Shown piece by piece: positions 2,427 through 62,868 of a stretch of DNA of 64,000 nt (position 1 is its first letter; each line of letters starts with the position of its first letter). A program made the position numbers and the translations under genes. The stretch is from an uncultured Candidatus Binatia bacterium (lineage in GTDB: Bacteria; Desulfobacterota; Binatia; UBA9968; JAJDTQ01): NCBI GenBank assembly GCA_965218305.1, contig OZ244617.1:715776-779775 (forward strand), written 5' to 3'. Below the pieces are notes generated by a model. It was given only the letters and a program-made list of their open reading frames with translations. It was not told where the DNA came from and searched no databases.

Positions 2427-3148
2427 GGTGCCTTGAAGGAATAGGCGGTGCGGAAGGCTTCCGTGGCCTGCATCCGCGCCCACCACGCGCCCAGCCCGGG
2501 CCGGGCATTCCAGTCCACCAGCCGCTCCAGTTTGTTGGCCTCGAAGCGCTCGATGAAGGGCGCGATGGAGCAGTCCGCCAGTGACATCCTGTCGCCGTTG
2601 AGCCAGGGCCGGTCCGCCAGGGCCTTCTCCACGTCGTCCAGGATCTCGGCGAGCCGCGCCTCGGCATAAGTCATTTGCTCCTCGGAGATGCCGTTCCTGA
2701 GCCGATCCGCCAGCAGCGCCCGTTTCGGTTCGGTGGGCTGCTGCATGATGGCGGCCTGCCGCTCTTCCTCGGACATGTTCTCGTAGCGCTTGATGCGGCC
2801 CTGCTTGATGAAGGAGATGACGTTGACGTTGCGGTGCAGCTCATGCTCGAACCGGTCCATCCAGATACGCATTTGCGCCCGTTCGTAGGGGTCGTCCGGC
2901 CTCAGCGGCACCTCCGGCCACATGTCGTCGAGGTACTCGAGAATGAAATTGGACTCGATGATGATCCGGCCGTCGTGCACCAGGGTGGGCACCACGCCGT
3001 TGGGATTCAGCTTGACGTACGAGGGGTCGAGATTCTCGAACTTCGCCAGATTGACGTAGACGCTCTCCCAGGAGAGTTGTTTCGCCGCCAGGGCGATCCG
3101 TACGCGGCGCGAGCAGGTGGAACTCCACCAATGATAGAGCTTCAGCAT
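2423..3148 (-). CDS. Glutathione S-transferase.
   Basis: [23 protein letters not shown]...VPTLVHDG carries the N-terminal GST thioredoxin-like motif. GGAGGTGTTTC-ATG Shine-Dalgarno. The 281-aa track ORF is trimmed to the ATG at 3148. Confidence 0.85.
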
Positions 3149-3343
3149 GAAACACCTCCGAAACACAGGGGATTCAACAACCCCTCGGGCAGTCGCCAGC
3201 TTACTGCGAACCGGACAAGTGCGTCCACCGGCGGTCCGGGCTGCGGCCGCGCGGGGAGTTGCCAACATGGACCCGCGCTGGCATACAAGTCACTGTGGTT
3301 CGGCCGCATGCCATTTTACCAGCGGAACAGAAAAGGATCTTAC

Positions 3344-3748
3344 ATGAGCGCTTCCAGGCATGGGACTTTCAGTTGGTGTGAGCTTCTGACCACTGACGTC
3401 GAAGCGGCAAAGAGCTTCTACGCCGAGCTTTTCGGGTGGACCATGGAGCCCGTAACCCACGAGTGCGACGAAGGCAACGAGACTTTTGAATACAATCTCG
3501 TGAAAGTGGATGGAACCGAGGTCGGCGGAATCATGGCCGTGCCGCCCCAGGCCGAGGGAATGCCGCCGTGCTGGGGGGCCTATGTGACGGTGGACGATGT
3601 GGACACGGCGGCGAAAAAGGTCCGGGATCTCGGGGGTGAGATCATGGTGCCGTTGAAGGATATACCGGGCGTGGGGCGGTTTTGTGTCATCCGGGACCCC
3701 CAGGGTGCCACACTCACCATGATCACCTACTTGCCGGGGCACGAATAG
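3344..3748 (+). CDS. VOC (glyoxalase/bleomycin-resistance) family protein.
   Basis: 134 aa. ...FSWCELLTTDVEAAKSFYAELFGWTMEP... and ...GRFCVIRDPQGATLTM are typical of the VOC fold. AAAAGGA Shine-Dalgarno. Confidence 0.8.
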   Translation: MSASRHGTFSWCELLTTDVEAAKSFYAELFGWTMEPVTHECDEGNETFEYNLVKVDGTEVGGIMAVPPQAEGMPPCWGAYVTVDDVDTAAKKVRDLGGEIMVPLKDIPGVGRFCVIRDPQGATLTMITYLPGHE

Positions 3749-3792
3749 GCGTCGTCTACGGGGATCGCCGCTGCACCGATGGGTGCGATACG

Positions 3793-5742: not shown

Positions 5743-6831
5743 TTACGACTGCAACGGGTCCGACGCGTCCAACTGCTTGCGGCGCTGCTGCTCCAGCGCC
5801 CACGCCACGTGCTCCCGTACCAGCGGAGACGCATCCTCGCTGCGCTCCTGCAACCCCTGGACGATGAGGGGATCGTAGGGCGCATTGCCCAACGCCACGG
5901 CGACGTTCCGCAGCCAGCAGGCGTGGCCGATGCGGCGAATCGCGCTCCCGCTCATGATGCGCAGGAAATCCGCCTCGCTCCAGCGAAAGATCTGCAGCAG
6001 CGCCGGCGCGTCCAGTTCGTGCCGGGGCAGAAAGCCCGCTTCGTCCGTGGGACGGGCATAGCGGTTCCAGGGGCAGACGAGTTGGCAGTCGTCGCAGCCG
6101 TAGATGCGGTTGCCCATGAGCGGCCGCAGCTCCACCGGGATGGAGCCGCGAAGCTCGATGGTGAGGTAGGAGATGCACCGGCGGGCATCGAGTTGGTACG
6201 GCCCGGTGATGGCGCCGGTGGGGCAGACGTCGATGCAGGCGCGGCAGGTGCCGCAGCGGTCCTCGGCGGCGCGGTCCGTGGGCAGCGCCAGATCGGTATA
6301 GATTTCGCCCAGGAAGAACCACGAGCCGGCGCCGGTGTTGATGAGGTTGGTGTGCTTGCCGATCCAGCCCAGGCCGGCGTTGCGCGCCAGCGGTTTTTCC
6401 AGCACCGGCGCGCTGTCGGTGAACACCCGGTAGCCGAAGGGACCGGCGAACGCGGCAATCCGATCCGCCAGGCCCTGCAGCCGCTTCCGCAGGAGCCGGT
6501 GGTAGTCCCGCCCCAGGGCGTAGCGCGAGACATAGCCGAGGCGAGGGTCGTCGAGGACTTGCCACGGGTCGGTCCCCGTCTCCGGAAGGTAATCCATGCG
6601 GGCGGAGATCACTCGGGCCGTGCCCGGCACCAGCTCGGCCGGCCGCGCGCGCCGGGACCCGTGCCGTTCCATGTAGCCCATCTCGCCGTGCCGTCCCTCG
6701 GCCAGCCAGCGCTCCAGCAGCGCCTCGTCCGCGGCCAGGTCGACGCCGGCGATGCCGATCTGCTGGAAGCCCAGCTCGCGGCCCCATGCCTTGATGCGGT
6801 CGGCCAAACGGCCGAGGTCCGGCTCGGTCAT
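5743..6831 (-). CDS. queG: Epoxyqueuosine reductase.
   Basis: 362 aa. CGTCRACIDVCPTGAI...CDDCQLVCPWN ferredoxin-like clusters plus the C-terminal HEAT-like region typical of QueG. Confidence 0.85.
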   Translation of the reverse strand: MTEPDLGRLADRIKAWGRELGFQQIGIAGVDLAADEALLERWLAEGRHGEMGYMERHGSRRARPAELVPGTARVISARMDYLPETGTDPWQVLDDPRLGYVSRYALGRDYHRLLRKRLQGLADRIAAFAGPFGYRVFTDSAPVLEKPLARNAGLGWIGKHTNLINTGAGSWFFLGEIYTDLALPTDRAAEDRCGTCRACIDVCPTGAITGPYQLDARRCISYLTIELRGSIPVELRPLMGNRIYGCDDCQLVCPWNRYARPTDEAGFLPRHELDAPALLQIFRWSEADFLRIMSGSAIRRIGHACWLRNVAVALGNAPYDPLIVQGLQERSEDASPLVREHVAWALEQQRRKQLDASDPLQS

Positions 6832-6837
6832 GGCGTA

Positions 6838-7926
6838 CTACGACGCCGGCGAGTAGCCCCTGGCGAACCAGGGCTCGAGGTCCGCCGAGAACAGATCGCC
6901 GGGGAGGTCCGTGCCCACGCCAGTCTCACGGGCCTTGTCCAGCATCGCCTTGCCCACGGCGGCGAACTGGATCGCCATGCCCGAGTTGTTCTTGTAGTAG
7001 ATGATTTCCGCGGGGTCCCGGCGGCCGGGCGCGGTTTTGTTCACCACCTCGCCCAGCTCGGCCACCTTGTCCCAGGAGGTCTCGCCGGCCTCGATGGGAT
7101 CCAGCAGTTCCTTCTGGCGGTTGGCGTGCACGCTCTCGCGGCCGTTGACCACGATCAGATCGCTGCGTGTGATGGTCTCCCGGTCCACCTCGTGGCGCTC
7201 GAACACCACGTCGCTGTTGACGATGGACACGACCGTCTGCCCCGGTTCCAGGTCCCTGCCGTCGAACACGGGACCCGACGAGCTGGTGGCGCAGCAGATG
7301 ACGTCGGATCCCTTCACCACCTCGCCCGGCTCGGTAGCGCTGGTCACCGGGATCCTCAGTTCGTCGCCGAATCGTGCGCAGAAATCCTCTCGGTGTGCGT
7401 GGGAGGGGCTGTACACCTTCATGCGTTGCAGGGGAAGGGCGGCCGCCAGTGCCCGGGCGTGCAGCTCCGCCTGGTGCCCCGTGCCGAAGAGGCCGGCGAC
7501 GCGGGAGTCCGGGCGGGCCAGCAGGCGGACGGCGGCGCCGCTGGTGGCGCCCACCCGCAAGGGCGAGATGCTGCCGTCCACGATGATGCCCAGAAGCTCG
7601 GCGGTCTCCAGGCTGTAGATGAGGAACTGGCCCCAGTAGCGCCGGGTGGGGTGCTGGAACTCCACCCGGCGGGTCTCGTCGTCCTTCTCCTGCGCGAGCC
7701 TGGAATTCAGGCGCACCGCCGCCACCCCGTACTTGGGCAGCGCCCCTGCATGGATGTTGGCAAAATATTTCGCCTCCGAGCCGGGCGTCGGACAGGAGTA
7801 ACGCAGCCGTGGCGGGTTGACCCCGTTCCCGCGCCCGAACTCGCGGAACACGTCCTCCATGAGATCGATACACTCACCCATGCTGAGCAGGTCCTTGCCT
7901 TCCTCTTCGTTGATGATCATCACCAT
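6838..7926 (-). CDS. Ornithine cyclodeaminase/mu-crystallin family protein.
   Basis: ...GLFGTGHQAELHARAL... Rossmann motif of the OCD/mu-crystallin family. ATG at 7926 with GGAGG 10 nt upstream. The longer track ORF begins at a TTG. Sits 6 bp upstream of queG on the same strand. Confidence 0.8.
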   Translation of the reverse strand: MVMIINEEEGKDLLSMGECIDLMEDVFREFGRGNGVNPPRLRYSCPTPGSEAKYFANIHAGALPKYGVAAVRLNSRLAQEKDDETRRVEFQHPTRRYWGQFLIYSLETAELLGIIVDGSISPLRVGATSGAAVRLLARPDSRVAGLFGTGHQAELHARALAAALPLQRMKVYSPSHAHREDFCARFGDELRIPVTSATEPGEVVKGSDVICCATSSSGPVFDGRDLEPGQTVVSIVNSDVVFERHEVDRETITRSDLIVVNGRESVHANRQKELLDPIEAGETSWDKVAELGEVVNKTAPGRRDPAEIIYYKNNSGMAIQFAAVGKAMLDKARETGVGTDLPGDLFSADLEPWFARGYSPAS

Positions 7927-8227
7927 GAGCTCTGGTCCTCCACGGCTTTTCGCCAATCCCGATGAAATCCCTGCCTGCCTCGCCGGTCCGTAACGAATCT
8001 ACCGGAAACGGTCACTCGGGTCCATTTGCACGAATCCCCATCTCCTCGTCACCCCAGGCCAAGCCCGGGGTGACGGTTACTATAGCCGGGGTGACCGGGT
8101 CACGCCCGGGATCAAGGAGAGGGACCTGGAACCGGGTGCGGTACCGGTTTGATGCGGGCCGGTGGGTGCAGTAGAAAGACCGTGCGAGGTCGCCGGCAGC
8201 CATGGGCTGCACGGCCGGAGCCACTCC

Positions 8228-16898: not shown

Positions 16899-17417
16899 AT
16901 GAGCCACAAGAATATCGTCCACATCTCCGATGTCCCTTCCGAGCCGCTGCCGACTCCGGAGGGAACGTCTTTCGGCGGCTTGCGGCAGCGTGTCGGCGTC
17001 GCCGTTGGCGCGCAGAAGCTGGGGTACGGACTCTTCACCGTTCCCCCGGGTAAGACCGCTTTTCCGCTTCACGTCCACACCCTCAACGAGGAGCTGATTC
17101 ATATTCTCGGGGGCGAGGGGACGTTGCGGTTCGGGGACGAGACGGTGGCTGTGCGCGCCGGGATGTTCATCGCCTGCCCGGGGGGCGTGGACATGACCCA
17201 TCAGCTCGTGAACACGTCTGATGCCGACTTGCGCTACCTGTGCGTGAGCACCATGCAGTATCCCGACATCGTCCACTACCCGGACTCCGGCAAGGTCGGC
17301 GTTTACGCCGGGCCCGGCGCGTCCGGCCAAAAGCCTTTTCGCGGCATCTACAAGAAGGGGACCGAGGTGCCGTACTTCCAGGACGAGACCGGTCCCGAGG
17401 TAAAGGAACGGCCGTGA
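16899..17417 (+). CDS. Cupin domain protein.
   Basis: ...FTVPPGKTAFPLHVHTLNEELIHILGGEGTLRFGD... double-stranded beta-helix motif. GGGAGGA Shine-Dalgarno. Confidence 0.75.
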   Translation: MSHKNIVHISDVPSEPLPTPEGTSFGGLRQRVGVAVGAQKLGYGLFTVPPGKTAFPLHVHTLNEELIHILGGEGTLRFGDETVAVRAGMFIACPGGVDMTHQLVNTSDADLRYLCVSTMQYPDIVHYPDSGKVGVYAGPGASGQKPFRGIYKKGTEVPYFQDETGPEVKERP

Positions 17418-18379
17418 GCGCATTCCGCGTGGCGTTTCTCGACGCGGCGACTTTCGGCGTCATTTCCCTGGCCCGGTTCGAGGAAGCCGTCGAGTGCGCC
17501 GTGCACGAGCTGACGGAGGCGGACGAGCTGCCCGCGCGGCTCGAGGGCTGCGAGTGCGCGGTGGTGAACAAGTTCGTTCTCGATCGGCCGCGGCTGGAGC
17601 ATCCTTCGGCCGGGCAGCTCCGGCTTATCGGTGTGGGGGCCACGGGGACGGACAACGTCGATGTCGCATGCGCCAGGGAACGCGGGATCGCGGTGTGCAA
17701 CGTCCCGGGCTACGCGACCTCCGCGGTGGCCCAGTACACCCTGGCGCTGATCCTGGAGCTGGCGACCCAGGCGGCCCGATACGCCCAGGGGACACGCATG
17801 GGCCACTGGCAGGAGAGCACGATCTTCACGCGGCACGACTATCCGAGCTTCGAGCTTCAGGGACGGGTGCTGGGGATCGTCGGCTACGGCAACATCGGCC
17901 GCAAGGTAGCGGAGATGGCCCGCGTCTTCGGACTGCGCGTGATCGTGGCCGGTCGCGTGGGAGAAGACCGGCAGCCGGAACGGCTGCCGGTGGAGGAGGT
18001 GCTCCGACAGGCCGATTTCGTCAGCCTGCATTGCCCGCTGACGCCCCTCACCGAAGGGTTCATCAACCCGCATACCCTGTCTTTGATGAAGCCCACCGCC
18101 TACCTGGTGAATACCGCGCGAGGCGGCCTCGTGGAGGAAGCGGCTTTGATCGAGGCGCTGGAACAAGGCTGGATCGCGGGCGCGGCTCTGGACGTCATCT
18201 CGCAGGAACCGCCGGATGAAGGCCACCCGATGATGGCTGCGGCGGCCCGGCTGGACAACCTCCTGATCACCCCCCACTGTGCCTGGGCCGCCCGGGAGAC
18301 CCGCCAACGGCTGATGGACGAGGTGTTCGAGAATATTCAGGCCTTTCGGCGGAGCGAGAGGCGGAACCGCGTGGACTAG
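17414..18379 (+). CDS. D-isomer-specific 2-hydroxyacid dehydrogenase (glycerate/hydroxypyruvate reductase-like).
   Basis: GIVGYGNIGRKVA NAD-binding motif and ...ARGGLVEEAALIEAL...DV.SQEP... GTG start with AAGGAA Shine-Dalgarno. Overlaps the cupin stop codon. Confidence 0.85.
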   Translation: MSAFRVAFLDAATFGVISLARFEEAVECAVHELTEADELPARLEGCECAVVNKFVLDRPRLEHPSAGQLRLIGVGATGTDNVDVACARERGIAVCNVPGYATSAVAQYTLALILELATQAARYAQGTRMGHWQESTIFTRHDYPSFELQGRVLGIVGYGNIGRKVAEMARVFGLRVIVAGRVGEDRQPERLPVEEVLRQADFVSLHCPLTPLTEGFINPHTLSLMKPTAYLVNTARGGLVEEAALIEALEQGWIAGAALDVISQEPPDEGHPMMAAAARLDNLLITPHCAWAARETRQRLMDEVFENIQAFRRSERRNRVD

Positions 18380-18590
18380 TGTTGTGTCTCACAAACAGGT
18401 TTACAAAGATGCGCAGGACTTTTTGTTGTCGGCAAGGCGCGATGACGGGTCGGGACGACTGGCAGTCGCCCTCCCTCAGTGGCGTGCACCACGCGAGGAA
18501 GACCCCGGGTCAAGCCCGGAGGTGACGTACGCAGCCGGCGGCGAAAAGGACCAGCAGATTTGTAAACCTGTTTGTGAGACACAACACTAG
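18376..18590. mobile_element. MITE-like non-autonomous element (215 bp) with about 31-bp perfect terminal inverted repeats that begin and end in CTAG.
   Basis: Left end CTAGTGTTGTGTCTCACAAACAGGTTTACAAA at 18376-18407. Right end TTTGTAAACCTGTTTGTGAGACACAACACTAG at 18559-18590, its perfect reverse complement. No ORF. The terminal CTAGs supply the TAG stops of both flanking convergent genes. Confidence 0.7.
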
Positions 18591-19450
18591 CGGCCGGTGA
18601 TGAAAATCGCGCCGCCGAGCAGGGACAGCGCCCCCAGGACGATGTTGAGCGTGACCTTTTCGAGATCCCTGAGGAAGATGAGGCTGAAGAGCACTGAGAA
18701 GAGCGGGGTGGTATTGAGCAGGGGGATCATGGTGGAGACCTCGCCGAGGTTCAGGGAGACGAACACCAGGAGCTGCGAGCCGGCAGAGACGAAGGCGGTA
18801 GGAATGAAGTAGGGCATGCTCTCCCGGCTGGGAACGACCACGGAGAATTGCCGCTTGATCGACAGGTAAATCAGGAAGATCGTGAGAGAGGTTCCCGTTG
18901 TCACCGCACCGGCGACGAATGGATTCGGCAGTATGAGCAGTCCTGCCCTGCGTAAATTTTGTGAAACGCCGGCCAGAAAAGCCGCTCCCAGTGGATACAT
19001 CGCGTCGATGAGCCGCCAACCGCCGTTGGTCTCGCCTTTCCGATAGAGCACCATCCATCCTCCGGCCACGATGAGAAGCCCGCCCAGATAGACGGATGCC
19101 GCGGGGCGCTCGTAGAGGAAGAGCACTGCGATAGCCACCGAAAAAAGGGGTCCGGTGCTGCGAATCGGCATCGCACGGGCGACCCCCAGACGGTCGATGC
19201 CGATGTAGAGCAAGATACGGGCAAGGAGGGGTTGCAGCGTGCCGCTCAGCATGAAGTAGAACGCCGCAGGAGACCGTACGATGGACAACGGAAAGTTCAA
19301 AGCCACGTAGAGCCACATCAGGATGGTCGTGACCACGAAGCTGAGAAAAGCGGCGCTGAGAACGCTCGATGTGCGCGCCCCCCGGCGGACCAGGATCGCG
19401 TCCACGGCCCAACCCATGGCGGAGATGATGGGGACGATTTCAGGGCGCAT
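18587..19450 (-). CDS. DMT (EamA) family transporter.
   Basis: 287 aa, 10 predicted transmembrane segments, EamA-like repeats. The stop codon lies inside the repeat terminus at 18587-18589. Confidence 0.8.
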   Translation of the reverse strand: MRPEIVPIISAMGWAVDAILVRRGARTSSVLSAAFLSFVVTTILMWLYVALNFPLSIVRSPAAFYFMLSGTLQPLLARILLYIGIDRLGVARAMPIRSTGPLFSVAIAVLFLYERPAASVYLGGLLIVAGGWMVLYRKGETNGGWRLIDAMYPLGAAFLAGVSQNLRRAGLLILPNPFVAGAVTTGTSLTIFLIYLSIKRQFSVVVPSRESMPYFIPTAFVSAGSQLLVFVSLNLGEVSTMIPLLNTTPLFSVLFSLIFLRDLEKVTLNIVLGALSLLGGAIFITGR

Positions 19451-19716
19451 CCAGTGTCCTGTCTCAGATATTCATTTCCGAGTTGGTCGTCACGAAAAAC
19501 GGGGTTCGGAGCTGTCGTCAGCCCTCGGGGCGGTGGCTTTCTCGGGGGCGTGCAACTTTCCCTGTAGCCGATACGAGCGGGATAGGCAAATACGGACGGA
19601 AGGTCTTGACTGTGGCTGTGGGGAAACGCTAGTGTCCTGTCCCACGAGACATCAGGATACGTTCTTCGCACAGAGCCGGTTCACGAAGCGATCAGGTTTT
19701 GAGAGGAGGGATAGTG

Positions 19717-20733
19717 ATGAATGAAGACAGAAGAGAGTGGAGAAGACGCGAGTTCTTGAAGCAGGGCATGGTGGTCGGAGCGGCCGCGCTGGCATCTCCC
19801 CTGCTGCCTTTTCTGGTGGGTGAATCCAGGGGCGCGAGTGGCATGCCCCAGATCGACCTGCCGATTACGTCGCTGCCGTCGCTCAACGAGACGGTGTCTT
19901 TGATCATTCGCGCCGGCAAGTTCGATGAGAAGAACGGCATCAAGATCAACTTCAAGCCCCGGCGTCTCGGGCCGGCCCTTAACGACTACCGGAGCGGCGC
20001 AACGAGTCTTAATGCGGCAGCCACCATCGTCCATGAAGGGGACCACATAAACCGCGGAATCCCGACACGCGCGCTTTTCGGCACGCTGGACTACTACGGC
20101 ACCGTCCTCACTGCGGATCCCGATATCAAGACGCTGAAGGATCTGGAAGGCAAGAAGCTCGGGGCTGCGACGGTTTCCGGAAACTACGCGATCTTTCGCT
20201 GGTTCGCCAAAAGGGCGGGCGTGGATCTTGCCAAGGCGGAAGTCCTGTCCCTGGGCGTTCCCGCCCTGGTGACGACGCTTGTGGCGGGACGCGTGGACGC
20301 CCTCCAGTGCTGGGAGCCCGGCGCGTCCATCGCGCAGCACAAGCAGCCGGGCAAGTACCATCGCATCGACTATGCGTACAAGTGGAAAGACTACACGGGG
20401 TTCGACATCCTTCCTTACCTCACCGTGGCCGCCAAGGCGGATTGGGTCAAGGCCAACGAGAAGCACATTCCCAAGCTGTACGCCACCTACAAGGACGCCT
20501 CCGACTTTCTCTATGCCGATCAGAAGGAGGGGGTTGCCATGATGGCAAAGGCGGCCAAGGGCAAGATTCCCGCGGAAGTGCTCCAACAGGTAGTCGAGAA
20601 GGACACCCTGCAGTTTCATCCGCACCGGTTCAAGGACATCCGCAAGGAGGCGGAGGCGGTGTTCAAGGCCATGGTCGAGGTCGGCCGCCTGAAGAAAATG
20701 CCGGGCCCCGAGCTTTTCGCAGCCTGGGGTTGA
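19717..20733 (+). CDS. ABC-type periplasmic substrate-binding protein, NMT1/SsuA (sulfonate/nitrate/taurine) family, with a Tat signal peptide.
   Basis: MNEDRREWRRREFLKQGMVVGAAALASP twin-arginine motif, followed by an SsuA/NMT1-like body. GAGAGGAGGG Shine-Dalgarno. Confidence 0.8.
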   Translation: MNEDRREWRRREFLKQGMVVGAAALASPLLPFLVGESRGASGMPQIDLPITSLPSLNETVSLIIRAGKFDEKNGIKINFKPRRLGPALNDYRSGATSLNAAATIVHEGDHINRGIPTRALFGTLDYYGTVLTADPDIKTLKDLEGKKLGAATVSGNYAIFRWFAKRAGVDLAKAEVLSLGVPALVTTLVAGRVDALQCWEPGASIAQHKQPGKYHRIDYAYKWKDYTGFDILPYLTVAAKADWVKANEKHIPKLYATYKDASDFLYADQKEGVAMMAKAAKGKIPAEVLQQVVEKDTLQFHPHRFKDIRKEAEAVFKAMVEVGRLKKMPGPELFAAWG

Positions 20734-20769
20734 TGCGGCATCGGCTCGAAGTCGAGACCCGGGCACCAC

Positions 20770-20843
20770 GGGAGGAGGAGCAACGCAGCCGACGACAAAA
20801 AGGACCAGCAGATTTGTAAACTTGTTTGTGAGACACAACACTA
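20770..20843. repeat. Truncated second copy (right end only) of the CTAG-TIR MITE-like element.
   Basis: 20782-20843 (ACGCAGCCGACGACAAAAAGGACCAGCAGATTTGTAAACTTGTTTGTGAGACACAACACTAG) matches 18528-18590 closely. Weaker similarity extends to about 20770. No left TIR is present. Confidence 0.7.
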
Positions 20844-20868
20844 GGCACCACGGTTCAAGCACCCGGTC

Positions 20869-21756
20869 ATGAAACCGCCGCCGTTCCGCTACCATACGCC
20901 CCGGTCCCTGGCCGAGGCGCTCGACCTCCTGCAGAACCTGCCGGGTGAAACCAGGGTCCTTGCCGGGGGGCAGAGTCTGGTTCCGCTGCTCAATCTGAGG
21001 CTGGCCTATCCCGAGGTCCTCATCGATCTCAATCAGGTGGCCGGGCTTTCCTATATTCGCGACACGGACTCCCATCTTCGCATCGGCGCCATGACCCGCC
21101 AGCGCGAGGCGGAGTTCTCGGAGCTCTTGGTGGCACGCTGTCCGCTCCTGATCGACGCGCTGGCCCAGGTGGGTCACCCCGCGATCCGCAACCGCGGCAC
21201 CATCGGCGGCAGCCTGGCACACGCCGATCCCGTGGCCGAGTTGCCCTGCGTGATGACGGCGCTGGACGCGGAGTTCGTGGTGGCCGGCCCGGGTGGCGAG
21301 CGGGTGGTGGGCGCGAGCGACTTCTTCCTGGCGCCCTACGAAACCGCGTTATCGCCGGGAGAGATCCTGGTGGAGGTGAGGATTCCCCTGGCTCAAGCGC
21401 CTCCGGCCGCGGGCTTCCTGGAGTTCAGCCGCCGCCACGGCGATTTCGCCCTGGCGGAGGCGGCGGTGGTGCTGGAGGGTGACGGAACCTGTACCGGTGC
21501 GCGGGTGGTGGCGGCCGGTCCGGCATGGACGCCGTCCCGGATCGAGCCCGTCGAGCGGCTCGTGGCCGCGGCCGGGGTAGCAAGAACGGACAGCGCGAGG
21601 CAGCGCGAGTTGGTGGAAGAAGTGGGTCGGACGGCGGAGGCCGCGGTGGCGGCGCTGGAAACCCACGCCGACGCCACGGCATACCAGCGGCGCCTGACGG
21701 CGGTTCTCGTGACCCGCGCCGTGGCACGGGCGCTGGAGCGATGGAACCGAAATTGA
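20869..21756 (+). CDS. Xanthine dehydrogenase family FAD-binding subunit (CoxM-like). Cluster 1.
   Basis: ...RVLAGGQSLVPLLNLRL...RNRGTIGGSLAHADP... FAD-binding PCMH motifs. Confidence 0.85.
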   Translation: MKPPPFRYHTPRSLAEALDLLQNLPGETRVLAGGQSLVPLLNLRLAYPEVLIDLNQVAGLSYIRDTDSHLRIGAMTRQREAEFSELLVARCPLLIDALAQVGHPAIRNRGTIGGSLAHADPVAELPCVMTALDAEFVVAGPGGERVVGASDFFLAPYETALSPGEILVEVRIPLAQAPPAAGFLEFSRRHGDFALAEAAVVLEGDGTCTGARVVAAGPAWTPSRIEPVERLVAAAGVARTDSARQRELVEEVGRTAEAAVAALETHADATAYQRRLTAVLVTRAVARALERWNRN

Positions 21757-22251: not shown

Positions 22252-24660
22252 ATGGAAGCTGCATCCACGCAATGGAAGGGCCGGGCGGTTCCGCTCCGTG
22301 AGGACCTGAGATTCTCCACCGGCAGGGGCATGTACATCGACGACATGAAGTTCCCGGATATGCTCCATGTCGCGATGCTGCGGAGCGTCCACGCCCATGC
22401 GCGCATCCAGCGGGTGGACTTGAGCGAGGCGCTGCAGGTGCCCGGCGTGGTATGCGGCCTCACCGGAGAGGACGCGGGGCGCATGTCCGAGCCGCTACGC
22501 TCCCTCATCCCCATTCCCGTTCAGCTCGACGCCTATTGCCTGGCCTACGGGAAGGTCACCCACGTCGGCGAGCCGGTGGCCGCCATCCTGGCCACCAGCC
22601 GTTACCTGGCGGAAGACGCGCTGGAGAAGATCCGGGTGGAGTACGAGCCGCTGCCCGCGGCGGTGGACCCCGAGGCGGCCATGGAGCCGGATGCGCCGCT
22701 GCTGTTCGAGTCCATGGGCACCAACGTGATGTGGCAGGACCGCTTCGACTACGGCGACGTGGACGAGGCCTTCGGCCGTGCCGCGCATGTCTTGAAGAAA
22801 CGCTTCTCCATCCAGCGGTACTCGTCCACCGCCCTGGAGACCTTCGGCTGCACCGCCGTCTACGACAATCGCCGGGAGCAGCTCACCATCTGGTCCAACG
22901 ACCAGCGCCCCGGGCAGGCCATGCCCATCGTCGCCCACAGCCTGGGCCTCACCCACGCCCAGATCCGCTTCGTCACGCCCGACGTAGGCGGCGGCTTCGG
23001 CAACAAGCGCAAGGCCCAGTACCTGATCATCGCGGCCCTGTTGTCCAAGATGAGCGGCGGCAAGCCGGTGCAGTACCTGGAGGACCGCCGCGAGAACCTG
23101 ATGGCGCTCATCCACGCCTGCAACGGCGTCATGGACCTGGAGACGGCGCTGGACAGCGAAGGCCATATCCTCGGCATGAAGGTGCGGGACATCGCCGACG
23201 AGGGAGCCAACGTCCTGAACCCCACGGTCCACTCGATCCTGAAGCTCGGGAACCTGACCAACTGCTACCGCATCCCGGTGGTGCGCTACGAGGTCAACTC
23301 GGTGATGACCAACAAGTGCCCGTCCGGCGCCAATCGCGGCATCGGCAAGCCCTTCATGTGCCTGGCCATGGAGCGGATGATGGATTACCTGGCCGGGCAA
23401 CTCGGCATGGACCGCATCGAGCTGCGGCGGAAGAACCTGGTGCCGCCGGACGCCATGCCCTACACGGGACCCAGCGGCGCGCTGATCGACAGCGGCGACT
23501 TCGGCGGCACCCTGGACAAGCTGTTGCCGCTCATCGAGTACGAAGCGTTTCTGCAGGAGCAGCGGGAGGCCCGGGCCCAGGGACGGTATCTCGGCATCGG
23601 CATCGCCATCGGCCTGGAACCCAGCACCTCCAACGCGTCGGCCTACATTCTCTCGTCGGGGCGGCGGAGCGCCTCGGGCGCGGCCGAGGCGGCCATGGTG
23701 CGGGTGGAGCACGACGGCAGCATCCTGGTGCTGCTGGGCGACGTAGGCAGCGGGCAGGGGCATGAGACCGCCGCGGCGCAGATCGTCGCCGACGAGCTGG
23801 GGGTGCCGATGGACGGCGTCCGGGTATCCCCGTTCTTCGATTCCGCGGTGACGCCCTGGCTCTACGCCACCGGCAACTACTCCAACAAGTTCGCGGGCAC
23901 CGACGTGGGGGCCATCCTTGGCGCCGCGGGCAAGGTGCGCGGCAAGCTCCTGGAGTTGGGGGCATACCTGCTACAGGAACCCGCCGAGAATCTGGAGCTG
24001 GCCGAAGGCGGTGTGCGCTCCCGGGACCGGCATGAGCACCGGAAGACCCTGGGTGAGCTGGCCTTCGTGGCCTACCGCGACCTCTTGTCGCTGCCGCCCG
24101 ACATGGAGCCCGGCCTGGAGGGCCGCTTCTACTACCGGCCGGCCATTGCCAACGTGCCCGACGAGAACCGCCGGGTCAGGAACCAGCTCTTCGCCAGCAA
24201 CGCCGCCCACGGGGTCATCGTCGAGGTGGACCCCGACACCGGCGGCATCACCATCCTCAAGTACGGCGTGGTGCACGACTGCGGCACCGTGCTCAACCCG
24301 TCCATCGTGGAGGGGCTGGTGCAGGGGGCCACCGCCCACGGCATCGGCGCGGCGTTGTACGAGGAGTTTGACTATGATGATGAGGGCAACCTGAAGGCCA
24401 CCACCTTCGTGGACTACCTCAAGCCCACCGCGGTGGAGATCCCCGACGTGCGGATGGACCACCTGGTCACGCCGTCGCCTTACACGCCTCTGGGGATGAA
24501 AGGGGTGGGGGAGGGCGGCGCCATTCCCGCGCCGGCCGCCATCGTCAACGCGGTGGAGAACGCGCTGGAACCGCTGGGCTGCGCGTTCGACCATCTCCCG
24601 CTCACGCCCGAGCGGGTCTGGGCAGAAATAGAAAAGGCCCGCGCTTCACGGCGCGGGTAG
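22252..24660 (+). CDS. Xanthine dehydrogenase family molybdopterin-binding large subunit (CoxL-like, not bona fide CODH). Cluster 1.
   Basis: 802 aa with aldehyde oxidase/xanthine dehydrogenase a/b-hammerhead and Mo-cofactor-binding regions (GGGFGNK). The CODH active-site loop position reads CPSGANRGIGKP. It matches neither VAYRCSFR nor AYRGAGR. Confidence 0.8.
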   Translation: MEAASTQWKGRAVPLREDLRFSTGRGMYIDDMKFPDMLHVAMLRSVHAHARIQRVDLSEALQVPGVVCGLTGEDAGRMSEPLRSLIPIPVQLDAYCLAYGKVTHVGEPVAAILATSRYLAEDALEKIRVEYEPLPAAVDPEAAMEPDAPLLFESMGTNVMWQDRFDYGDVDEAFGRAAHVLKKRFSIQRYSSTALETFGCTAVYDNRREQLTIWSNDQRPGQAMPIVAHSLGLTHAQIRFVTPDVGGGFGNKRKAQYLIIAALLSKMSGGKPVQYLEDRRENLMALIHACNGVMDLETALDSEGHILGMKVRDIADEGANVLNPTVHSILKLGNLTNCYRIPVVRYEVNSVMTNKCPSGANRGIGKPFMCLAMERMMDYLAGQLGMDRIELRRKNLVPPDAMPYTGPSGALIDSGDFGGTLDKLLPLIEYEAFLQEQREARAQGRYLGIGIAIGLEPSTSNASAYILSSGRRSASGAAEAAMVRVEHDGSILVLLGDVGSGQGHETAAAQIVADELGVPMDGVRVSPFFDSAVTPWLYATGNYSNKFAGTDVGAILGAAGKVRGKLLELGAYLLQEPAENLELAEGGVRSRDRHEHRKTLGELAFVAYRDLLSLPPDMEPGLEGRFYYRPAIANVPDENRRVRNQLFASNAAHGVIVEVDPDTGGITILKYGVVHDCGTVLNPSIVEGLVQGATAHGIGAALYEEFDYDDEGNLKATTFVDYLKPTAVEIPDVRMDHLVTPSPYTPLGMKGVGEGGAIPAPAAIVNAVENALEPLGCAFDHLPLTPERVWAEIEKARASRRG

Positions 24661-24722
24661 GGGCGGGTTTCAAACCCGCCCGCCATCGGGATCCGTAGGG
24701 GCGACCGGCCGGTCGCCCCTAC
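24657..24722. repeat. REP-like GC-rich hairpin elements: GTAGGGGCGGGTTTCAAACCCGCC plus the perfect palindrome GTAGGGGCGACCGGCCGGTCGCCCCTAC.
   Basis: Family consensus recurs at 29687, 39053 and 62845 (the last inverted). The TAG stops of CoxL-1 (24658-24660) and of the convergent minus-strand gene (24719-24721) lie inside the two hairpins. Confidence 0.65.
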
Positions 24723-28703: not shown

Positions 28704-29690
28704 ATGCGCAATCTGACGAACAGAATTCTGTTGGGCGCCGCCGCGCTTTGTCTGGCAGCGAGCTTGCCGCTGTCCCAGGCCGCTGCCGCCTTTCCCGACC
28801 GCAACATCAACCTGATCGTGCCGTTCTCGCCCGGCGGCGGCTACGACAGCATCGCCCGCGCGACCGCCCGGAGCATGAAGAAGTTCCTGCCCAAGGGCGT
28901 GAACGTCATCGTCAAGAACGTCACTGGCGCCGCCGGCCAACGCGCCAACGTGTTCGTGTACCGCGCCAAGCCCGACGGCTACACCATCGCCCACCTGCAG
29001 TCGTCCGGGATGCTCGGGCAGGAGATGATGTCGGAAAAGCCCGTCGGCTTCGAGACCGGCAAGTACACTTGGCTGGCCCGTGTGGGCGCGGACCCCTACG
29101 GTCTTCACGTATCGGCCAAGGGCCCCTACAAGTCCATCGAGGATCTCCAGAAGGCCAAGCGGATCACCTGGGGAGTCGAGGGCATCGGCGTGGGACGGTG
29201 GTTAGGCTGTTTCCTGGCCGCCAAGGCCTTCGGCATCGACTTTCACGTGGTGGCCGGCTACCGCGGCACGGGAGAGTCGCTGCCGGCGCTCCTGCGCGGC
29301 GACTTCGACGTCTGGGCCCAGCCCATCGACCATCCGTCCGTCACCTCCTACCTGGGGACGGACCTGCGCCCGGTGGCTCAACTGGACAAGAAGCGCGCGG
29401 TCCACGCCCCCGACACGAAGACGTCCTACGAGATGGGCTATGACCTGTACTTCAGCGACCTGCGCGCCTTCGGCGGCCCGCCGGGAATCCCCGAGGACCG
29501 GGCGAAGTTCCTCGAGGACCTTCTGCTCAAGGCGTTGAGGGACAAGGCCTACGTCGACTGGAAGAATTCGTCTAACTACGTGCTGGTGGAGGGGCCGGGA
29601 TCCACCGTGGCCCAGGACCTGAAGTACTACCAGAACCTGTTCGAGGCGAATATCGAGGAGATGCGGGCAGCCGCTAAAGCCACCCAGTAG
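28704..29690 (+). CDS. tctC: Tripartite tricarboxylate transporter substrate-binding protein (TctC/Bug family).
   Basis: Signal peptide MRNLTNRILLGAAALCLAASLPLSQAAAAFP, then the Bug-family motif ...NLIVPFSPGGGYDSIARA... GGGAGGAAAG Shine-Dalgarno. Confidence 0.85.
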   Translation: MRNLTNRILLGAAALCLAASLPLSQAAAAFPDRNINLIVPFSPGGGYDSIARATARSMKKFLPKGVNVIVKNVTGAAGQRANVFVYRAKPDGYTIAHLQSSGMLGQEMMSEKPVGFETGKYTWLARVGADPYGLHVSAKGPYKSIEDLQKAKRITWGVEGIGVGRWLGCFLAAKAFGIDFHVVAGYRGTGESLPALLRGDFDVWAQPIDHPSVTSYLGTDLRPVAQLDKKRAVHAPDTKTSYEMGYDLYFSDLRAFGGPPGIPEDRAKFLEDLLLKALRDKAYVDWKNSSNYVLVEGPGSTVAQDLKYYQNLFEANIEEMRAAAKATQ

Positions 29691-29760
29691 GGGCGGGTTT
29701 CAAAACCGCCTGTGCCCGGGTATCAAACCCGTGGCCGCTTGTTTGTGACGCGGGCCACGG
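29687..29760. repeat. REP-like hairpins inside the tctC-tctA intergenic spacer.
   Basis: GTAGGGGCGGGTTTCAAAACCGCC at 29687-29710, whose TAG is the tctC stop. A second imperfect hairpin CCCGTGGCCGC...GCGGGCCACGGG lies at about 29728-29762. Confidence 0.6.
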
Positions 29761-34345: not shown

Positions 34346-34440
34346 GTGGCGGAGAAGGGAGGGAGTCGAACCCTCCGAGAACCTTACGGCCCTCAGACTG
34401 GTTTTGAAGACCAGCGGCACCACCGGGCACCTTCCTTCTC
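34346..34440 (-). tRNA. selC: tRNA-Sec (selenocysteine, anticodon UCA).
   Basis: Minus-strand sequence GGAGAAGGAAGGTGCCCGGTGGTGCCGCTGGTCTTCAAAACCAGTCTGAGGGCCGTAAGGTTCTCGGAGGGTTCGACTCCCTCCCTTCTCCGCCA. 95 nt, 8-bp acceptor stem, anticodon loop CUUCAAA, long variable arm, GGTTCGACTCC T-loop, encoded CCA. Confidence 0.85.
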
Positions 34441-34601
34441 CGGAGAAGCATGGATTCGTTCGGGTGAATAAGGGATGGGTATCGCCACTACCCTAGACAA
34501 TCCATGATGATTTGGCAAAACGGACACCTTGGCAACGTACCATGGGTGTCGTGAAGGCGTTCTCCATCATTCCCGGCGTCCGTTCGAACCTCCCAGGGAG
34601 C

Positions 34602-39052: not shown

Positions 39053-39110
39053 GTAGGGGCGGGTTTCAAACCCCCCCGCGCCCGGGCCGGCACTTCGCAG
39101 GGGGGTTTGA
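39053..39110. repeat. REP-like hairpin element (copy 3) in the spacer between the split TPP-subunit genes.
   Basis: GTAGGGGCGGGTTTCAAACCCCCCCGCGCCCGGGCCGGCACTTCGCAGGGGGGTTTGAA. Confidence 0.6.
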
Positions 39111-62797: not shown

Positions 62798-62844
62798 CGG
62801 CGGGCGCTGGCCGCAGGTATCGACCGAATGTGCTACGCGGGCGC

Positions 62845-62868
62845 GGGCGGGTTTGAAACCGCCCCTAC
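62845..62868. repeat. REP-like hairpin element (copy 4, inverted orientation) between the hyuA and hyuB genes.
   Basis: GGGCGGGTTTGAAACCGCCCCTAC. Confidence 0.6.

Follow-up and report, generated by a model that had tools for sequence, protein, structure and literature searches.

The DNA analysed here (the window) was a 64-kb stretch (64,000 nucleotides) of contig OZ244617.1 from an uncultured Candidatus Binatia bacterium. Between two convergent genes, which encode a D-2-hydroxyacid dehydrogenase and an EamA/DMT transporter, it carried a 209-bp inverted-repeat element whose ends coincided with the stop codons of both genes. Judged by sequence, repeat and fold analyses, the element was most probably a MITE (miniature inverted-repeat transposable element), that is, a non-autonomous, TA-duplicating DDE-type DNA transposon of a Candidatus Binatia family. 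The features of the locus were as follows.

17414–18379, plus strand: gene of the D-2-hydroxyacid dehydrogenase, probably starting with the GTG at 17414, with the Pfam domains 2-Hacid_dh and 2-Hacid_dh_C.
18377–18378: left TA of the target-site duplication; the preceding C, this TA and the first G of the element make CTAG.
18379–18587, plus strand: MITE proper, 209 bp, G...C, long form with the A end on the left.
18379–18407, plus strand: left terminal inverted repeat, consisting of the 12-nt conserved tip GTGTTGTGTCTC and the 17-nt subterminal cassette ACAAACAGGTTTACAAA.
18408–18446, plus strand: conserved A arm, GATGCGCAGGACTTTTTGTTGTCGGCAAGGCGCGATGAC, common to all subfamilies.
18449–18472, plus strand: module 1, a degenerate GC hairpin resembling a repetitive extragenic palindrome (REP), with the canonical forms GTAGGGGCGACCCGCGGTCGCCCC and GTAGGGGCGGGTTTCAAACCCGCCC.
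18503–18528, plus strand: second small hairpin module, CCCCGGGTCAAGCCCGGAGGTGACGT.
18529–18558, plus strand: conserved B arm, in part the complement of the A arm.
18559–18587, minus strand: terminal inverted repeat on the right, exactly the reverse complement of its left counterpart.
18588–18589: right TA, the second target copy; together with the C of the element it supplies the minus-strand TAG at which the EamA/DMT gene stops.
18587–19450, minus strand: EamA/DMT transporter gene, convergent with the dehydrogenase gene and ending in ...ITGR*.

Both the direct reading of the sequence and the repeat finder gave a CTAG-ended 32-nt arm, CTAGTGTTGTGTCTCACAAACAGGTTTACAAA, at 18376–18407 and its exact reverse complement at 18559–18590. 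The terminal inverted repeats were perfect over 29 of 29 nt, 95% complementary over 37 nt, and imperfectly paired up to about 60 nt. The 29-nt core was present in three copies in the window, compared with none expected from 100 shuffles. An earlier note, made from the window alone, had described a MITE-like element of 215 bp with 31-bp perfect repeats. The MITE-like nature was upheld by the small size, the lack of coding capacity, the terminal inverted repeats, the TA flanks and the dispersed copies with a filled and an empty site described below, and the lengths had to be corrected to 209 bp and to 32-nt arms including CTAG. With this length and no coding function, the element lay within the general range of MITEs (below about 600 bp, non-coding). 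The only open reading frames (ORFs) within it were two of 68 aa, which were mirror artefacts of the palindrome and had no Pfam match, in agreement with the non-coding interior noted before. Moreover, both flanking stops were located inside the terminal CTAGs as described: the 2-Hacid_dh ORF ended at 18379, its TAG being composed of the left TA and the first G of the element, and the EamA ORF ended at 18587 on the minus strand.

The distribution of the element was investigated by scanning 185,579 species-representative genomes with the exact 19-nt tip. The tip matched 30 loci (the loci collected in this work are numbered with the prefix L), and 29 of the 30 carried the same element type. These 29 were spread over eight assemblies, of which seven bear the label Candidatus Binatia and one the label Syntrophobacterales. 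The repeat was therefore not unique to the window locus; such uniqueness would, according to the earlier note, have spoken against a mobile element. The thirtieth locus, in a Rickettsiales metagenome-assembled genome, had no TA flanks and was discarded as a chance match. In total, the eight assemblies contained about 28 non-redundant insertion sites at unrelated loci, plus sister subfamilies. Contig OZ244869.1 possessed both window insertions, with flanks 94.7–99.7% identical, which places the window in a close relative within Binatia; the second hairpin module of the window copy was missing from its orthologous copy. Complete copies, 18 in number, aligned end to end and measured 118, 159, about 180 and 203–209 bp. 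Half elements and diverged copies were plentiful in the same 8-kb loci, and decayed remnants were common. All subfamilies had the 12-nt tip GTGTYSTGTCYS, an AT-rich cassette of about 17 nt and near-invariant A and B arms. The cassettes of at least ten subfamilies differed from one another by more than 50%, yet within any one element the two arms carried the same cassette. The family was previously undescribed and, as far as sampled, confined to Candidatus Binatia, and a literature search with the end sequence of the element found no relevant paper.

Direct evidence for mobility came from L002 (OZ241976.1), where a 159-bp copy lay between the genes of a ROK-family kinase and a CHAD-domain protein, with both stops in the terminal CTAGs. 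Four orthologous loci of other assemblies (L053–L056, ROK protein 90–92% identical) had no element, and there the two genes overlapped by 4 bp, TTAG. The filled junction read ..gtgcgcTA[GTGTTG..CAACAC]TAgttgccc.. and the empty one ..ctgcgtTAgtcgtcc.., so that the TA which was single in the empty site flanked the element on either side in the filled one. The G of the ROK TAG in L002 came from the first base of the element. The CHAD stop was TAA when empty and TAG when filled, with its last base derived from the terminal C of the element. The pair was thus also direct evidence for the donated stop codon, to which the duplicated target contributed two bases and the element one. Accordingly, the creation of stop codons considered in the earlier note was better described as the re-creation of existing stops from the duplicated TA and the terminal G or C. 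L024 was considered as a third case with both stops in the element ends and was rejected, as its flanking ORFs had no Pfam match and looked wrong-frame.

The window element folded as a single long hairpin (−134.8 kcal/mol, z = −11.8; z = −9.5 on the other strand). Such a very stable hairpin, placed exactly between convergent genes, would suit a large locus-specific hairpin that acts as a bidirectional terminator and is not mobile. However, the family was dispersed in many copies at unrelated loci in eight assemblies, presence and absence were polymorphic at one site (L002), no signature of a hairpin followed by a T-run was found on the element, and the orthologous loci manage without it. The terminator was therefore refuted as the sole explanation and is extremely improbable in that form, while a terminator-like side effect is possible.

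The flanks of 50 ends were compared. The flank was CTA (giving CTAG) at 39 ends, TTA at three, GTA at one and a mutated TA such as CTG at six. The G and C adjacent to the flanks were invariant, including those at eight partner ends found with mismatches, which were not forced by the search pattern. The target itself could be interpreted in another way, as that of an IS5-group-type MITE which duplicates the whole 4-bp CTAG/YTAR, the element proper then being TGTTG...CAACA. The filled and empty sites of L002 fit this equally well owing to the palindromic target, and MITEPsy1 of Pseudomonas syringae, a 100-nt derivative of the IS5 family, targets CTAG/YTAA and duplicates CTAG or YTAA (PMC3189936). 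In contrast, three copies with non-palindromic flanks, L009 T-TA[G...C]TA-A, L027 T-TA[...]TA-G and L018 C-TA[...]TA-C, required no mutations under a 2-bp TA duplication and four under a 4-bp CTAG/YTAR duplication. Their supposed 4-bp copies were unequal (TTAG/CTAA, TTAG/CTAG and CTAG/CTAC, respectively), so that identical YTAR direct repeats were not what flanked them, and the inner G and C never varied, even at the eight partner ends outside the selection by the search pattern. Furthermore, the ends of IS5-group elements are of the GGAAGGT type, and the tips of this family appear to be unlike these. Unlike MITEPsy1, which duplicates 4 bp, the informative Binatia copies indicated 2 bp, and the ends were unrelated. 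A 4-bp duplication of the IS5-group type is accordingly quite unlikely. Among the explanations offered before, a duplication of the TA or CTAG target was the one favoured by the data, with L009, L027 and L018 fitting 2 bp.

Based on these results, a DDE transposase supplied in trans would recognise the inverted ends with the tip GTGTYSTGTC..., excise the element and integrate it at TA, with a strong preference for TA inside CTAG, duplicating the TA. Because the element starts with G and finishes with C, each insertion restores ...TA-G at its left border and C-TA... at its right border, and therefore a gene whose TAG or TAA stop contains the target TA ends at the same codon. Since a stop is rebuilt on each side, an insertion in the 4-bp overlap of two convergent genes is silent for both proteins and moves the genes 160–210 bp apart. 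The stop-codon behaviour is thus explained by known transposition chemistry together with the G...C termini. As a direct consequence, a very stable hairpin is predicted at the 3' ends of both transcripts, from which an effect on termination or mRNA stability may be inferred. The family provides a clean natural example of a TA-duplicating G...C element that enters overlapping convergent stops and leaves both proteins unchanged.

The frequency of landings on stop codons was examined in relation to the scarcity of CTAG. The 64-kb window contained 17 CTAGs, compared with 207 (zero-order) or 69 (Markov) expected, which was about 12-fold under-representation. Four of the 17 belonged to MITE ends; the 13 others comprised four stops of long ORFs with high G+C at third codon positions, six intergenic sites and three sites within crude ORF calls. 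Insertions at stop codons made up seven of the approximately 28 sites, with nine ends, at Pfam-verified genes (2-Hacid_dh, EamA, ROK, CHAD, Amidohydro_2, CobS, RuvA, CoxG and an ABC ATPase). About 24% of the insertion sites were on stops, compared with about 31% of ordinary CTAGs being stops, and hence no extra preference for gene 3' ends, as had been proposed in the earlier note, was needed. Landings on stops are frequent because CTAG is nearly purged and about one third of the remaining sites are stops; target specificity, CTAG scarcity and silent insertion suffice to account for them. The genome-wide avoidance of CTAG thereby directs an element that seeks CTAG to stop codons and promoters. 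In addition, the stops of the 66 crude ORF calls in the window were 30 TAG, 30 TGA and 6 TAA, and the TAG share was unusually high for a bacterium.

The locus of the window was compared with its relatives. The C-terminus ...RNRVD* was kept in all dehydrogenase orthologues and all EamA orthologues ended in ...R*, whether the element was present or absent. The different stop positions in element-free relatives, which the earlier note had held to be incompatible with its reading, were thus not observed. Orthologous loci without the element (L031, L035, L036, L037/L038, L040 and L057) had TGA or TAA stops and spacers of 52–470 bp, and several of these spacers held a small ORF or foreign DNA. L033, also without the element, had a TAG stop (GAT TAG), after which came an AT-rich spacer of 437 bp, and in L032 the element was absent and the dehydrogenase stop was lost (CAG), giving a protein 7 residues longer. 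The closest relatives had sister elements at the same GAC|TAG dehydrogenase stop. The element of L034 was a short form that had another cassette, lay in the opposite orientation and was separated by a 27-nt spacer from the CTAG stop of EamA, and L039 carried a third cassette at the same dehydrogenase-stop CTAG; more distant relatives had no element at this stop. This CTAG has accordingly harboured different subfamily members in different lineages. The exact abutment of the window element to both stops would imply either a prior 4-bp overlap of the genes or an L034-like spacer that was later deleted from CTAG to CTAG. The excision allele of the window locus is predicted to have the junction ..GGACTAGCGGCC.. 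across 18376–18590.

The dehydrogenase–EamA gap has the appearance of a hotspot for insertions. In L057, which has the closest dehydrogenase orthologue (94% identical), a low-GC ORF of 342 aa without a Pfam match directly followed the dehydrogenase stop (2754–3782), and a duplicated remnant of the dehydrogenase 3' end came after this ORF. A conserved small ORF of about 70–76 aa was present in the ancestral dehydrogenase–EamA spacer (L032 4982–5212, L036 2406–2618, L040 and L057). It has a hydrophobic N-terminus followed by repeated coiled-coil-like motifs, with no Pfam match on record.

The long forms of the family had one or two extra GC hairpins, of which the first was a GTAG-headed REP-like unit (GTAGGGGCGACCCGCGGTCGCCCC or GTAGGGGCGGGTTTCAAACCCGCCC). 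The 5' GTAG head is of the type associated with RAYT, an IS200/IS605-like Y1 transposase, and the units were also found alone and in arrays, including window positions 24657, 29689, 39054 and 62843. Both findings would suit a REP/BIME-type composite spread by RAYT instead of a DDE transposase. However, the 159-bp short forms had no REP unit and the same ends and flanks as the long forms, and long inverted-repeat ends flanked by duplicated TA are unlike REP placement. The element was not a mobile imperfect palindrome of 20–40 nt with a GTAG head, as its own ends had no such head and the GTAG units were only optional internal modules, and spread by RAYT is very unlikely. Because the REP-like units are nested in the long forms and also occur alone elsewhere, the long forms are best read as MITEs in which REP-type units ride as passengers. 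Units with the RAYT-type head (GTAGGGGCGGGTTTCAAACCCGCCC and GTAGGGGCGACCGGCCGGTCGCCCC) were located in the window at 24657–24719, 29689–29711, 39054–39079 and 62843–62867 and outside it in L001 (4454–5049 and 6778–7196) and L011 (9–152). They were single, in adjacent pairs, or in arrays whose periods were about 59, 109 and 142 nt.

The conservation of the A and B arms raised the question of a function for the host. The arms were near-invariant over at least ten subfamilies and eight genomes, whereas the subterminal 17 nt differed by more than 50%; arm-to-arm mismatches were mostly changes of G/A giving a G.T wobble on one strand; and about a quarter of the sites were in gene 3' ends. The host might therefore retain the family because the conserved interior serves it at the RNA or DNA level, for example as a 3'-end hairpin or a protein binding site, with mobility being secondary. 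On the other side, no Rfam 15 family matched the element, whether the gathering score or E ≤ 1 was applied, decayed remnants were common, as were half elements, the wobble bias came from very few independent events, and the conservation may merely reflect recent spread. A host function as the primary reason for the family is consequently unlikely, and the strand bias of the arm mismatches was not accepted as evidence for RNA structure, the independent events being too few. A related possibility is that the family does not derive from transposase ends in the ordinary way and is either a hairpin-dependent element moved by an unrecognised enzyme that reads only the 12-nt tip and the fold, or a stop-preserving 3'-end hairpin spacer between convergent genes, kept by the host. 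It is suggested by the invariant interior, the cassettes matched between arms and the lack of a partner with exact 18–19-nt ends in the genomes, metagenomes and viral sequences scanned, and its chance of being correct is small.

Several observations weigh against a TA-duplicating MITE moved by a DDE transposase. An exact empty site for the window locus was not present in the ten orthologous loci fetched via dehydrogenase homologues, and the predicted junction with overlapping stops gave no match in an exact-pattern metagenome scan. The palindromic target meant that the filled and empty sites of L002 alone could not separate a 2-bp from a 4-bp duplication. The interior of the family was more conserved than the subterminal ends, which is unusual for a MITE. 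Among the loci from the scan of 185,579 genomes there was no ORF-bearing copy, only MITEs and half elements. An 18-mer scan of metagenomes gave 12 loci, none of the Binatia type and none with a transposase, and viral scans with the element ends gave 0 matches. The transposase family, IS630/Tc1-mariner-like or possibly IS5/IS427-like, is inferred only from the target and the duplication. The autonomous partner sought at the suggestion of the earlier note was thus not found in the genome, metagenome and viral scans, which used exact 18–19-mers and would miss a partner whose ends had diverged. Further, a BLAST search of plasmids with the repeat returned chance 21-mers only, and pairs of tip-like sequences 0.5–3.5 kb apart in the collected loci did not enclose an ORF-bearing insertion sequence.

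Two metagenome contigs (JGI), L042 (3093–3371) and L048, contained a 279-bp MITE from an unrelated organism with 46% GC. Its end agreed with that of the Binatia family over the first 20 nt (GTGTTGTGTCTCACAAACAT) and its flanks were likewise CTAG, but its AT-rich interior was entirely different. The same 20-nt tip and CTAG flanks in an unrelated organism suggest that the cognate transposase lineage is widespread.

The properties of other TA- and CTAG-targeting elements have been described. According to PMC2170065, which cites Tenzen and Ohtsubo (1991), both IS630 and ISY100 target TA and duplicate these 2 bp, and the TA used by IS630 lies preferentially within CTAG. The Binatia family was in agreement with both properties, with 39 of 50 ends in CTAG, a TA that was near-invariant at both ends, and three non-palindromic sites that fit a 2-bp and not a 4-bp duplication; the evidence for the duplication is indirect, most targets being palindromic. 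The IS630-like assignment was made because of this match. The family likewise resembled IS630, ISY100 and the related MITEs, RUP of Streptococcus pneumoniae and Nezha of cyanobacteria, in the TA target and TA duplication. Such MITEs are short inverted-repeat derivatives without coding capacity and are believed to be mobilised in trans (PMC3049150). Unlike in IS630-type systems, the Binatia repeats effectively extend over about 60 nt and enclose a variable central cassette, and the scans yielded neither a cognate transposase nor an ORF-bearing copy. The IS5 family's IS427 group, which produces 2-bp direct repeats (PMC3281130, Table 2), is a possible parent. Its members differ in being insertion sequences of 830–865 bp with 13–21-bp repeats and frameshifted transposases, and no IS427-type insertion sequence with the ends of the family was seen among the loci examined.

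Correia elements (CREE/NEMIS) of Neisseria are 100–160 bp with 26-bp inverted repeats (PMC3049150), and they are gene-adjacent and co-transcribed and form long hairpins. They are unrelated to the Binatia family in sequence and host, and they are AT-rich with IHF sites and promoter-forming ends. Correia elements also duplicate a TA target. To our knowledge, exact superposition on the stop codons of both neighbours has not been described as a property of the Correia family. REP/BIME and SPRITE are repeats that form hairpins and are enriched between convergent genes or after them (PMC3184786). REPs are single hairpins of 20–40 nt that lack the architecture of inverted repeats plus duplication, and REP-like units are nested in the Binatia long forms; SPRITE mimics a Rho-independent terminator, whereas the Binatia element had no such signature. 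An undescribed MITE family is documented here in Binatota, a phylum known only from metagenomes. Its copies may be used as strain-level presence/absence markers for Binatia populations, and they explain annotations in which gene ends are repeat ends, as well as short-read contig breaks.

At the contig ends of JAJEAI01 (L012 1–139 and L016 1885–2124), a different repeated element, probably an insertion sequence, interrupted a family MITE. Its ends were TTAACCTC(G/A)(C/A)TGTTGCA(G/A)AAA(C/A)TGG, with an apparent duplication of about 10 bp (GTCTGCAAAG), and it broke the short-read assembly on both sides.

Further traces of the family were located between the EamA and coxM genes of the window, as follows.

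19452–19560, plus strand: decayed remnant of about 110 nt of a sister subfamily, starting with AGTGTCCTGTCTCAG, 2 nt from the EamA start codon.
19629–19646, plus strand: solo end of a sister subfamily, CTA|GTGTCCTGTCCCACG, on the −10 region of the conserved coxM promoter box.
20765–20841, minus strand: half element, a B end with terminal repeat and arm, the left half missing, shared with OZ244869.1.

The repeat finder showed positions 20783–20844 to be 94% identical to the right end of the element, and comparison with a short-form relative extended the similarity of the half element back to 20765. The half element was followed by TA (20842–20843) and G, and the resulting CTAG at 20841–20844 was 24 nt upstream of the coxM-like ATG at 20869. 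The partial second copy reported before therefore exists, with its position revised from 20770–20843 to 20765–20841 and its distance from 25 bp to 24 nt. The solo end and the half element bracketed a 1210-bp segment (19632–20841), the ends being inverted and TA lying within CTAG flanks. This segment held a gene for a Tat-signal NMT1/SsuA-like substrate-binding protein (19717–20733), a gene that none of the other relatives had between EamA and coxM. A promoter-like box, CTTGAC-N17-GCTA(C/G)GT, was present upstream of coxM in all relatives (window 19595–19635; L033, L034, L037, L032 and L036). In the window, the 1210-bp segment sat in the CTAG forming the −10 part of this box, and its flanks were consistent with insertion at the promoter CTAG. 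The binding protein showed no sign of multi-copy spread, as its homologues were graded in identity (99, 81, 72 ... 62%). The segment resembled a cassette bordered by MITE ends, but the idea that it is mobile had no support from this divergence and is of low probability.

The remnant at 19452–19560 was absent from L031, L032, L034 and L037, and in L033 a different mini-remnant was found at the same place by the EamA start. The tip of the window remnant (reverse complement GACAGGACAC) placed AGGA about 9 nt before the EamA ATG (19448–19450), and the ribosome-binding site of EamA may have been supplied by the remnant. In L035, a gene for the R subunit of a type I restriction enzyme (HSDR_N, ResIII; 5774–7969) was present beside EamA in place of coxMSL. 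Elsewhere in the window, a tRNA-Sec gene was located at 34351–34441 on the minus strand.

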